In this document: positions 2,251-2,365 of the stretch, in pieces
Numbering within the stretch: the first letter of the stretch is position 1
Layout of the letters: each line of letters begins with the position of its first letter
Origin: a virus
Lineage: Duplodnaviria; Heunggongvirae; Uroviricota; Caudoviricetes
Virus record (IMG/VR): IMGVR_UViG_2877291059_000004
Length of the DNA: 3,663 nucleotides
Strand: one strand, 5' to 3'
The notes under the pieces: generated by a model
Database searches by the model: none
What the model saw: only the letters and a program-made list of their open reading frames with translations
Told to the model about the DNA's origin: nothing
Made by a program: the position numbers and the translations under genes

Positions 2251-2272
2251 ATAAAAAAGACGCGGGCGCGTC
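2251..2272 (-). terminator. Intrinsic terminator in the control region upstream of the antirepressor-like genes
   Basis: Minus-strand GACGCGCCCGCGTC (5-6-bp GC stem) immediately followed by TTTTTTAT. On the plus strand the A-run precedes the stem, so it is not a plus-strand terminator. Confidence 0.65.
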
Positions 2273-2329
2273 TCATATCGCTCCGTAAACATCCGGGGTC
2301 TCAATCCCGACGCCAGATTTTGCTGGCGT
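2252..2329 (-). ncRNA. Candidate ~80-nt structured small RNA or terminated leader transcript (promoter at 2336-2365, terminator at 2251-2272)
   Basis: Predicted transcript acgccagcaaaatctggcgtcgggattgagaccccggatgtttacggagcgatatgagacgcgcccgcgtcttttttat. It has a 5' hairpin ACGCCAG-caaaat-CTGGCGT, a weak central hairpin and the 3' terminator hairpin with U-run. It contains no plausible ORF. Confidence 0.3.
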
Positions 2330-2335
2330 ATGAGG

Positions 2336-2365
2336 AATATAGCCCCGGATATGTGTTGTCGTCAA
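2336..2365 (-). promoter_or_regulatory. Candidate sigma70 promoter on the minus strand (-35 TTGACG, 18-bp spacer, -10 TATATT)
   Basis: Minus-strand TTGACGacaacacatatccggggcTATATT, with 5/6 matches in each hexamer. The predicted start is near 2329, heading towards the terminator at 2251-2272 and the ORF6N-like gene. Confidence 0.35.

Follow-up and report, generated by a model that had tools for sequence, protein, structure and literature searches.

Judged by its sequence, the minus-strand promoter-to-terminator unit at 2251..2365 is a genuine and ordinary member of IsrK, a known prophage small-RNA family. The term "window" denotes the whole 3,663-nucleotide stretch of viral DNA that was analyzed. 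As predicted from model matches and complementary runs, the unit opens a module with the order promoter, a1-b1 leader with terminator, C4 antisense RNA, a2-b2 sites and antirepressor gene (ant). We assign a probability of roughly 0.8 to the reading that it is the isrK of a lambdoid E. coli prophage and the a1/b1 arm of a P1/P7-type immI module, the decoy mechanism proposed below included. Membership in IsrK is already known biology, which the result refines; no new system is described. The evidence obtained in this analysis consists of family membership, anatomy, complementarities with their co-variation, and conservation of the promoter and terminator.

A search with Rfam covariance models, as the first-pass annotation had proposed, gave two matches above cut-off. 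The isrK model (RF01394, curated cut-off 50 bits) scored 70.6 bits (E = 2.5e-14) over model positions 1-77 of 77 at 2329..2253(-), and the C4 model (RF01695, cut-off 45 bits) scored 75.9 bits over positions 1-87 of 87 at 2226..2142(-). A further model, c4-a1b1 (RF03163), scored 45.3 bits at 2342..2290(-), over hairpins 1 and 2, which is 1.4 bits under its cut-off of 46.7. The architecture of that family (two hairpins, a1 in a loop, b1 on the 3′ side) is present in the window, and the cut-off is passed by the relatives ECOR29 (49.8 bits), FDAARGOS_943 (47.2 bits), Gifsy-1 (48.1 bits) and P1 (51.0 bits). The unit also has the structure of isrK, in which a pair of 5′ hairpins and a single-stranded spacer lead to a Rho-independent terminator followed by a U-tract, and its context, with a sigma-70 promoter of its own, a prophage location and a co-oriented antirepressor gene on the 3′ side. 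The earlier remark that no annotated feature explains this stretch is correct for protein annotation, but Rfam does explain it. Overlooked at that stage were the key partner C4 (2226..2142) and the a2/b2 sites at the ribosome-binding site of ant. Features are collected in Table 1.

Table 1. Predicted features of the IsrK/C4 module and its antirepressor genes (window coordinates).
Feature	Position	Strand	Basis or detail
Sigma-70-type promoter P(isrK)	2336..2365	minus	-35 TTGACG 2365..2360, 18-nt spacer, -10 TATATT 2341..2336
IsrK-family small RNA, 77 nt, predicted	2253..2329	minus	Rfam RF01394; a1/b1 leader of C4 module
IsrK hairpin 1 (ACGCCAG/CUGGCGU)	2329..2310	minus	fold
IsrK hairpin 2 (CGGG/CCCG), 8-nt loop	2309..2294	minus	fold
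a1 site UUGAGAC	2298..2304	minus	hairpin 2 loop; pairs with a′ by a 7-nt Watson-Crick run
b1 site UACGGAG	2281..2287	minus	single-stranded spacer; pairs with b′ by 6 Watson-Crick pairs and 1 G-U
Intrinsic terminator of IsrK	2253..2274	minus	GC hairpin and U-tract
C4 antisense RNA, full length	2142..2226	minus	Rfam RF01695
a2 target site UUGAGAC	2132..2138	minus	4 nt 3′ of C4 end
b2 target site GUACGGAG	2099..2106	minus	pairs with b′ by 7 Watson-Crick pairs and 1 G-U
Regulated antirepressor ant, 225 aa, ORF6N and P22AR C-terminal domains	1413..2090	minus	Pfam PF10543 (1.5e-20), PF10548 (2e-28)
Terminator-like hairpin ahead of second antirepressor	1395..1376	minus	terminator scan
Second antirepressor, 242 aa, Rha N-terminal and KilAC/ANT domain	616..1344	minus	Pfam PF03374 (1.6e-33), PF09669 (1.2e-09)

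The minus-strand TTGACG-18-TATATT promoter of the first-pass annotation was recovered at its coordinates by a consensus scan, and the terminator about 80 nt downstream and the two intervening hairpins were placed by scan and fold where they had been described. P(isrK) matches the consensus at 10 of 12 positions and is the sole sigma-70-like site that the scan finds in the window. Note that shuffled sequences are expected to contain 4.2 promoter-like sites versus the 1 observed, and 4.0 terminator-like sites versus the 4 observed; the unit stands above chance level because of homology and conservation and not because of the scans alone. The predicted transcription start is the A at 2329, and the numbering of the Gifsy-1 mutants (G28, G31, C18; PMC4825925) agrees with a +1 at the first A of ACGCCAGC. 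From 5′ to 3′, the RNA is arranged as hairpin 1, hairpin 2, single-stranded spacer and terminator. The segment 2330..2245(-) folds with an MFE of -33.5 kcal/mol (z = -3.4), a value equaled by 0 of 200 shuffles. Its terminator hairpin, GAGACGC-GCCC-GCGTCTT at 2274..2257, is followed on the minus strand by TTTTATATCG. As had been noted before, the unit holds no supported ORF: those that overlap it are mechanical ORFs of 27-44 aa and a 287-aa ORF with its ATG inside the terminator. Because the overlapping ORFs are not conserved, we rejected a coding explanation. No tRNA or tmRNA was found in a scan of the window.

Comparisons were performed on 16 loci including the window, P1 and Gifsy-1; the isrK-type subset comprises 15 (the window and 14 others) and leaves out P1. 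Many related prophages are Stx phages. In all 14 of the other non-P1 loci, C4 lies about 25 nt beyond isrK and precedes an antirepressor gene, as in Gifsy-1 (isrK 34316..34240, C4 34214..34131, then anrP). Alignment of homologous regions, a check that had also been suggested earlier, showed the promoter and terminator to be kept in the 15 isrK-type loci: the -10 element ends 6 nt 5′ of the RNA start, with 7-11 of 12 consensus matches, and the 3′ end of the RNA carries a GC hairpin with a U6-7 tail (15/15). Compensatory changes occur at 5 of the 6 pairs of hairpin 1, for which the covariation score is 0.343 versus 0.155 in shuffles (reached by 0 of 500). The RNAalifold consensus lacks the terminator because its stems lie in two registers of the MAFFT alignment, and a fixed-column count gives 65.6% paired for its helix; folds of the individual sequences show the terminator in every locus.

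C4 starts 26 nt 3′ of the short RNA. It has a long basal stem, a GAAA-capped hairpin, a hairpin B and a single-stranded linker, and its MFE fold agrees with the Rfam structure. The 3′ tail CCAGA lies directly 3′ of the basal stem. Pairing was assessed by searching the flanks for ungapped runs complementary to the C4 core; full-length RNAduplex predictions of C4 against the flanks had given long, uninterpretable duplexes that ignore intramolecular structure, and were replaced by the run search. Two segments of C4 are complementary to sites on both sides of it: b′ (UUCCGUAC, 2184..2177), in the loop of hairpin B, and a′ (GUCUCAA, 2170..2164), in the linker. All four complementary runs together were reproduced in 0 of 20,000 shuffles of the window. 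On the 5′ side, b1 ends 6 nt 5′ of the terminator stem. On the 3′ side, a2 lies in the loop of an alternative hairpin formed by the C4 3′ strand UCGCCACC with GGUGGCGA (2126..2119), which is predicted in 16/16 loci and shows G-C to A-U co-variation. The b2 site contains the Shine-Dalgarno sequence GGAG (2102..2099) of ant, 8 nt before the ATG at 2090. The sole small ORF near the ant start (2116..1964, 50 aa) overlaps ant out of frame; it has no Pfam match, and its counterpart in ECOR29 has only 9 codons.

When the search was run without bias on the 16 loci, the best runs between C4 and its flanks sat at homologous positions at nearly every site, the exceptions being b1 in WGPS4 and Tyrion and b2 in FDA943. 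The a′/a1/a2 and b′/b1/b2 runs match the sites that the P1 record annotates. Site a1 occupies isrK nt 26-32 in 14 of the 16 loci; in PA8 it lies at nt 23-29, and in Stx1_699 it is a 6-nt run at nt 27-32. At the b1 position, directly 3′ of hairpin 2, where the P1 record (NC_005856) also annotates b1, 14 of the 16 loci, P1 among them, have complementary runs of 6 nt or more; the remaining two have runs of 5 nt. There are 9 distinct a-words among the loci and no fewer than 11 b-words, each altered jointly at all three places. Cognate runs average 6.9, 7.1, 6.9 and 8.1 nt versus 3.9-4.6 nt for non-cognate pairs, and no cross-compatible pair of loci was found among the 16. The specificity pair of the window, a = UUGAGAC and b = (G)UACGGAG, is absent from the other 15 loci, of which ECOR29 shares the b word but not the a word, and an exact 29-nt search for its C4 specificity (b′ plus a′) gave 0 matches in one-genome-per-species GTDB contigs. 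Compared in this way, IsrK and the P1 a1/b1 leader appear as the same element, with variable words that co-vary three ways. This supports a decoy/antisense/target reading and questions the published orf45 peptide as the conserved actor.

The closest experimentally studied relative is IsrK of the Salmonella prophage Gifsy-1 (RF01394; Hershko-Shalev et al. 2016, PMC4825925), a member of the same family that scores 79.3 bits, versus 70.6 for the window. The two RNAs are identical over their first 25 nt and in the hairpin 2 stem. Their promoters (TTGACA-18-TATATT in Gifsy-1) share the -10 element and the spacer length and differ by one base at -35, and both units have the three-hairpin layout with terminator, followed by a C4-like RNA and an ORF6N-type antirepressor gene. 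The specificity words differ, with GAGAC in the window versus GGCGT for a, and ACGGAG versus CACCG for b. The surroundings also differ: the Gifsy-1 unit lies directly after Q, whereas in the window NinE and a toxin-antitoxin pair precede the unit, and Q of the nearest relative lies downstream.

In Gifsy-1, a short IsrK and a read-through isrK-orf45-anrP transcript are made, and a processed species of about 80 nt, STnc1160, is found downstream of IsrK; IsrK supplied in trans raises an anrP translational fusion 139-fold and a transcriptional fusion 8-fold (PMC4825925). Main control in Gifsy-1 is thus translational. The first-pass annotation had offered a termination switch or a free-standing small RNA: the read-through antirepressor mRNA and the trans-acting short form of Gifsy-1 agree with it, but the placing of control in a regulated terminator does not. 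Its discrete structured RNA, of about 77 nt, directly upstream of antirepressor genes is borne out, as far as sequence goes, by the isrK match and by the Pfam assignments of the ORF6N/P22AR and Rha-type genes. The compensatory mutants G28A/C162U and G31A/C159U (PMC4825925) fall, by our numbering, exactly on a1 and a′.

Order of parts and C4 fold (RF01695) are those of immI in P1/P7 (a1-b1, c4, a2-b2, icd, ant; NC_005856), an operon credited to Citron & Schuster 1990 in the supplement of Weinberg 2010, which also credits to them the competition of a1/b1 with a2/b2 for C4. As in the window, P1 has a′ in the linker and b′ in a hairpin loop; its second leader hairpin carries a1 in the loop and has b1 just 3′ of it, a2 comes directly after C4, and b2 lies at the ribosome-binding site of the gene that follows. 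The P1 record annotates a2 and b2 as sites of C4 repression of icd/ant translation. Several features set P1 apart. All four site words differ, icd lies between b2 and ant whereas b2 of the window is on the Shine-Dalgarno sequence of ant itself, with no icd-like ORF between them, and P1 has an extra C1-controlled promoter with an operator (Oc4). The P1 leader falls below the isrK cut-off, and the same terminator scan found no terminator in it; a discrete short a1b1 RNA thus belongs to the IsrK subtype alone, and the isrK-type terminator is not universal to C4 modules.

The proposed mechanism is as follows. P(isrK) would fire, and most transcripts would end at the intrinsic terminator, giving a 77-nt IsrK RNA with a1 exposed in a hairpin loop and b1 in an unpaired stretch. 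The read-through fraction would form a precursor yielding an excised C4 RNA of about 80 nt and the ant mRNA; in P1, C4 is cut out of its precursor by RNase P, and the CCAGA tail of the window C4 and the processed species of Gifsy-1 lend indirect support to such an excision. C4 would use linker a′ and loop b′ to pair with a2 and b2, and with b2 covering the ant Shine-Dalgarno sequence, Ant would not be made and the prophage repressor would remain active. Bearing the same two sites, IsrK would compete for C4 both in trans, as free RNA, and in cis, as part of the read-through transcript. An excess of IsrK would free a2/b2, allowing translation of Ant and shifting the prophage towards induction. 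Termination with read-through, C4 processing, trans-activation and a2/b2 repression are carried over from Gifsy-1 IsrK and P1 C4; by homology they would apply to the window copy, where we infer that trans-activation acts via C4 titration. Note that the decoy model requires differences in stability or affinity, because the read-through transcript has one a1b1 per C4; the only hint of such an affinity difference is that predicted b2 runs are longer than b1 runs on average (8.1 versus 6.9 nt).

We lean, by a narrow balance, towards extending this scheme to IsrK RNAs generally, which would be the released, terminated a1/b1 decoy arms of C4 modules; Gifsy-1 orf45/STnc1160 would then be C4, and G28/C162 and G31/C159 would be a1-a′ pairs. 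If true, IsrK trans-activates by titrating C4, and decoy, antisense RNA and target make up a three-RNA circuit whose a and b words are exchangeable. Over-expression of STnc1160 makes IsrK toxicity stronger, not weaker (PMC4825925), and is therefore a poor fit to a simple titration model. None of the papers open to searching states a link between IsrK and C4: C4 RNA, RNase P and phage P1 go unmentioned in the 2016 Gifsy-1 paper (PMC4825925), and IsrK and c4 are separate entries in a review of 2025. The link is implicit in the overlapping Rfam families.

The chief alternative is the Gifsy-1 model taken literally, in which IsrK opens the structure of the read-through mRNA, the 45-codon orf45 is translated, and anrP is translated by coupling (PMC4825925). 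For the window, IsrK would refold an unprocessed mRNA from an inactive structure A to an active structure B and expose an ORF running through C4 that feeds ant translation. In its favor, SPA-tagged ORF45 was detected and induced by IsrK, and mutation of the first orf45 AUG or an early stop lowers anrP activation (PMC4825925); an AUG at C4 position 5 is conserved in the window (2222..2220) and in 16/16 loci. The ORF itself is not conserved, however, ranging from 8 to 45 codons or remaining open among the 16 loci, and only in Gifsy-1 does its stop overlap the antirepressor start. The orf45 frame of the window lacks a stop codon and continues in frame into ant, where it would add a 44-aa N-terminal extension instead of a coupled upstream ORF, so the coupling mechanism is not transferable unchanged. 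Moreover, ant has its own Shine-Dalgarno sequence, covered by b2, and the Gifsy-1 authors' own remark that the nucleotide sequence is conserved and the peptide is not (PMC4825925) fits an RNA, as does the Rfam assignment of the stretch to C4. We consider this model unlikely, though the strongest of those weighed here. Less probable still is control of the kind described for phage P4, in which C4 acting on nascent a1/b1 would alter the efficiency of the IsrK terminator, leaving the short RNA mainly a by-product of a regulated-termination switch. P4 immunity resembles the module, by published description, in that the processed CI RNA works between complementary sites (seqA/seqC) of one transcript, and the Gifsy-1 authors point to seqA as structurally homologous to IsrK and raise a CI-like role for STnc1160 (PMC4825925); the short distance from b1 to the terminator stem is also in its favor. 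P4 CI acts through premature transcription termination (PMC4825925), whereas the output of the window module would, by homology, be translational repression of the antirepressor. The 8-fold versus 139-fold fusion responses and the a1/b1-bearing P1 leader, terminator-free by the same scan, argue against such a switch, and inspection of the IsrK sequences showed no obvious alternative antiterminator pairing.

A free-standing Hfq-dependent small RNA with mainly host mRNA targets, its proximity to ant being incidental, would suit the Rfam family name ("isrK Hfq binding RNA") and the existence of prophage small RNAs with host targets. We strongly doubt this as the main role, though an additional one may exist: the sole variable single-stranded segments of IsrK co-vary with the adjacent C4 in the 16 loci, and IsrK RNA is always accompanied by C4 and an ant gene. 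Very improbable is a late-promoter unit of the lambda PR′/tR′ type, a constitutive short transcript extended only by the Q antiterminator, to which the first-pass annotation had likened the layout of promoter, RNA of about 77 nt and terminator. The lambda 6S RNA unit is likewise a short terminated transcript of a lambdoid prophage, but is extended by Q into late genes; lambda PR′/tR′ requires an upstream Q gene and binding site and downstream late genes. In Gifsy-1 and E. coli ECOR29 the unit does lie directly downstream of Q. In the nearest relative and in phage Lahn2, Q and the late genes are downstream of the unit (Q by about 2.3 kb in the nearest genome), and the reading was rejected on gene order; the unit is, in addition, homologous to IsrK/c4-a1b1 and not to a qut region, and its variable parts co-vary with C4, not with Q type. 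The analogy with small RNAs controlling P22 ant also named the wrong family. P22 sar/ant shares with the window RNA control of an antirepressor, but the sar transcript runs antisense to the ant leader, whereas IsrK and C4 of the window are on the same strand as ant.

The unit and its C4 partner lie in a lambdoid nin region, with NinB, NinE, the toxin-antitoxin pair, isrK/C4 and two antirepressor genes. The nearest relative, 99.4% identical, continues from NinE, toxin-antitoxin pair, unit and two ant genes to DUF1364, RusA, Q, tRNAs and lysis genes, and phage Lahn2 has the same gene order. The PGAP annotation of the nearest genome has no RNA feature at the unit. Tandem Repeats Finder found nothing in 1..700, and an IS1 duplication was found by direct-repeat search.

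IsrK and C4, both known RNA genes, together with their target sites account fully for the intergenic region 2091..2365, a stretch that protein-only annotation such as PGAP leaves blank. The comparative table of loci is a modest addition to known biology, pointing from sequence to IsrK and the P1 leader as one element. IsrK/C4 modules govern whether the antirepressor is made, and they therefore influence prophage induction and cross-immunity among related prophages.

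The first-pass annotation had placed a minus-strand promoter-to-terminator unit upstream of the antirepressor gene ant, with two further hairpins and no ORF in between, and each of these elements was recovered. Consensus scanning returned the promoter as the sole sigma-70-like match in the window (10 of 12 consensus matches). The RNA between promoter and terminator was predicted to form two 5′ hairpins plus the terminator (MFE −33.5 kcal/mol, z = −3.4; 0 of 200 shuffles folded as stably), and no credible ORF was found inside the unit. Scans of the window for tRNA and tmRNA were negative. 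Note that the window holds one promoter-like site versus 4.2 expected and four terminator-like sites versus 4.0 expected; consensus scans alone are thus not above chance, and the case for the unit rests on homology and conservation. An Rfam search, proposed in the same annotation, matched isrK, C4 and c4-a1b1. The isrK and c4-a1b1 matches identify the predicted unit as an IsrK-family RNA overlapping the a1/b1 leader motif of C4 systems. The earlier intuition was largely right, but the analogues it named (lambda PR′/tR′ and an sRNA of the P22 ant type) were wrong and the C4 partner, starting 26 nt downstream of IsrK, was overlooked.

Features of the window, with the source of each assignment
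Feature	Coordinates	Strand	Description	Source
P(isrK) promoter	2365..2336	minus	−35 TTGACG 2365..2360, spacer 18 nt, −10 TATATT 2341..2336	consensus scan
Intrinsic-terminator-like site	2274..2257	minus	GAGACGC-GCCC-GCGTCTT then T-run	terminator scan
isrK (RF01394)	2329..2253	minus	70.6 bits, cut-off 50, full model	Rfam scan
c4-a1b1 (RF03163)	2342..2290	minus	“a1, b1 targets of C4 antisense RNA”; 45.3 bits, slightly below cut-off 46.7	Rfam search
C4 antisense RNA (RF01695)	2226..2142	minus	75.9 bits, cut-off 45, full model	Rfam scan
a1	2304..2298	minus	UUGAGAC	complementary-run search
b1	2287..2281	minus	UACGGAG	complementary-run search
b′	2184..2177	minus	UUCCGUAC	complementary-run search
a′	2170..2164	minus	GUCUCAA	complementary-run search
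a2	2138..2132	minus	UUGAGAC	complementary-run search
b2	2106..2099	minus	GUACGGAG	complementary-run search
NinB	3663..3253	minus		Pfam
NinE	3256..3035	minus		Pfam
HTH antitoxin (HTH_3)	2730..3038	plus	102 aa	Pfam
Gp49/HigB-like toxin	2411..2740	plus	109 aa	Pfam
ant	2090..1413	minus	ORF6N + P22AR_C antirepressor, after RNA genes	Pfam
Second antirepressor gene	1344..616	minus	Rha + KilAC	Pfam
IS1 transposase fragment	1..381			Pfam

Rfam models were applied at gathering thresholds to 15 further loci, comprising P1, Gifsy-1, Stx and other coliphages, APSE-2, Enterobacter phage Tyrion, a Yersinia phage and E. coli prophages. Every non-P1 locus, including Gifsy-1, carries isrK (53–80 bits), C4 about 25 nt later (67–83 bits) and then an antirepressor gene; the P1 locus matched c4-a1b1 and C4. 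Promoter and terminator are conserved among these homologous regions: all 15 isrK-type (non-P1) loci, window included, keep both a −35/−10 pair that stops 6 nt short of the RNA start and, at the RNA 3′ end, a GC hairpin with U6–7. Compensatory changes, for which a check of the three stems had been suggested, affect five of six pairs in hairpin 1 across isrK-type loci. Hairpin 2 has an unchanging stem and a variable loop (a1). This strong comparative evidence argues that the IsrK unit is real and functional.

An unbiased search in all 16 loci looked for runs of the C4 core that are complementary to its flanks. For almost every site the best runs fell at four common positions (exceptions: b1 in WGPS4 and Tyrion, b2 in FDA943), which match the sites marked in the GenBank entry for P1. 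The partners of the a′ word, which lies in the C4 linker, are a1 in the loop of IsrK hairpin 2 (nt 26–32) and a2, 4–5 nt past the C4 end. For the b′ word, which lies in the loop of C4 hairpin B, the partners are b1 at IsrK nt ~40–48 and b2, 30–37 nt past C4 in 15/16 loci and about 50 nt past it in the Yersinia phage. Nine a-words and at least 11 b-words occur among the 16 loci, each changing jointly in all three places; cognate runs averaged 6.9, 7.1, 6.9 and 8.1 nt versus 3.9–4.6 nt for non-cognate pairs, and no two loci were cross-compatible. Shuffling the flanks 20,000 times never reproduced all four window runs. The Shine-Dalgarno sequence of ant (GGAG) lies inside b2, 8 nt ahead of the ant ATG.

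Other structures were seen in the same RNAs. The hairpin-1 loop of IsrK, GCAAAAUC (window 2316..2323), is identical in 11/15 isrK-type loci, with a co-varying stem beneath, and is without complementarity to C4. An alternative hairpin (window 2119..2153) would join the C4 3′ strand UCGCCACC to downstream GGUGGCGA with a2 in the loop, so that the basal-stem 3′ strand of C4 pairs with a downstream GGUGGYGA box. This hairpin is predicted in 16/16 loci with G-C to A-U co-variation, would compete with the basal stem of C4 before transcripts are processed, and may correspond to one helix in the structure models for Gifsy-1 and to what the Weinberg 2010 supplement remarks on terminator overlap.

In Gifsy-1, IsrK occurs as a short terminated RNA and within a translationally silent read-through isrK-orf45-anrP mRNA, from which an ~80-nt species, STnc1160, is processed; an anrP translational fusion rises 139-fold with IsrK in trans, and a helix between IsrK and “orf45” was proved by the compensatory mutants G28A/C162U and G31A/C159U (PMC4825925). 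Upon renumbering, the orf45 first AUG (nt 107) falls on C4 position 5, G28 and G31 lie in a1, and C159 and C162 lie in a′. Judged from these positions, the published helix is the a1–a′ pairing and “orf45” is C4 sequence read as an ORF. C4 RNA, phage P1 and RNase P are never mentioned in PMC4825925, and a 2025 review treats c4 and IsrK as systems apart. According to the annotation of the P1 record, C4 represses icd/ant translation via a2/b2. The Weinberg 2010 supplement describes the two-hairpin a1b1 motif; the original proposal, as cited there, is that a1/b1 compete with a2/b2 for C4, allowing ant expression. Unlike P1, the window is without an icd-like gene and has b2 on the Shine-Dalgarno sequence of ant itself. 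The P1 leader shows no terminator by the scan applied to the window and falls below the isrK cut-off; a terminator releasing a discrete a1b1 RNA is the mark of the IsrK subtype.

To the family membership, anatomy, complementarity and co-variation observed here, termination with read-through, processing and trans-activation can be added for the window by analogy with Gifsy-1 and P1. Transcripts from P(isrK) would mostly end at 2253, giving IsrK, and read-through would yield C4 and ant mRNA. C4 would pair with a2/b2 and block the ant ribosome-binding site, IsrK would compete for C4 through a1/b1 in cis and in trans, and abundant IsrK would lead to Ant synthesis and prophage de-repression. We infer that activation is C4 titration. 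Simple titration is at odds with Gifsy-1 results: tagged ORF45 was detected, a mutated orf45 AUG lowered activation, and STnc1160 over-expression enhanced rather than suppressed IsrK toxicity (PMC4825925). C4 may also act on the IsrK terminator in the manner of P4 CI, but no structural feature supports this and the main Gifsy-1 effect is translational (PMC4825925). Targeting of host mRNAs by IsrK is possible as an extra role, but would leave the co-variation with C4 unexplained.

The resemblance to lambda PR′/tR′ is contradicted by gene order. In the nearest complete genome, E. coli RMDEC465 (99.4% identical over 2080..2420), a lambdoid prophage reads repressor, cro, cII, replication genes, NinB, methylase, NinE, toxin-antitoxin pair, an unannotated gap, two ant genes, DUF1364, RusA, Q, tRNAs and lysis genes; the position of Q and the lysis genes downstream of the two ant genes speaks against such a unit. 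In E. coli ECOR29 and Gifsy-1, the isrK/C4/ant module lies immediately 3′ of the Q antiterminator gene. The usual place of PR′ in lambdoid phages is directly downstream of Q. In the window lineage and Lahn2, unlike ECOR29 and Gifsy-1, the module occupies the nin region, with Q downstream of it.

Among 5,426 complete E. coli genomes, 443 gave matches, as did 288 phage records, mainly of Stx phages. The best match in the phage collection, at 92% identity to the IsrK/C4 region, is PP818812.1 (Actinobacillus phage vB_Apl-pPE4) 15567..15840; the record is labelled an Actinobacillus pleuropneumoniae phage, a stated host for which an E. coli prophage-like IsrK/C4 stretch is unexpected. The toxin-antitoxin pair (2411..3038, plus) sits between NinE and the isrK promoter, divergent from the latter. 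E. coli FDAARGOS_943 has the same pair and an identical isrK promoter region, but its IsrK/C4 carry other a and b words, which indicates mosaic recombination inside the module. Where RMDEC465 has DUF1364, RusA and Q, the window has an IS1N-like transposase remnant, and the prophage appears truncated or disrupted there. The remnant (1..600), with 97% identity to IS1N, directly adjoins the second antirepressor gene at its end and contains an internal direct duplication of ~141–143 bp (25–93 = 168–236; 108–152 matches 249–293). Between the two antirepressor genes, 1376..1395 (minus) forms a strong intrinsic-terminator-like hairpin, GACCCAGCTTCGGCTGGGTT, then TTTTAT. The equivalent position in Gifsy-1, after anrP, holds the sRNA gene isrJ, for which the Rfam scan gave no match in the window. 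A 50-codon ORF (1964..2116, minus) runs across the ant start in another frame; its ATG at 2116 follows a strong SD-like AAGGUGG, and Pfam gives no match. In ECOR29, the equivalent ATG opens a 9-codon ORF only, whose stop overlaps the ant start (ATGA). The ORF could be a short leader ORF or fortuitous.

The families of this unit are already in Rfam, and Gifsy-1 and P1 have both served for studies of their biology. Little is new here: only the explicit joining of IsrK and the a1/b1 arm of C4, together with the non-conservation of orf45, goes mildly beyond what was known. The AUG at C4 position 5 (window 2219..2222), the orf45 start, is kept in the 5′ strand of every C4. The frame spans exactly 45 codons in Gifsy-1 and is not conserved among the 16 loci (8–45 codons, or open); in the window it continues into ant in the same frame, with no stop between, and the coupling model therefore cannot be carried over as it stands. 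Initiation at this AUG would lengthen Ant by 44 residues.
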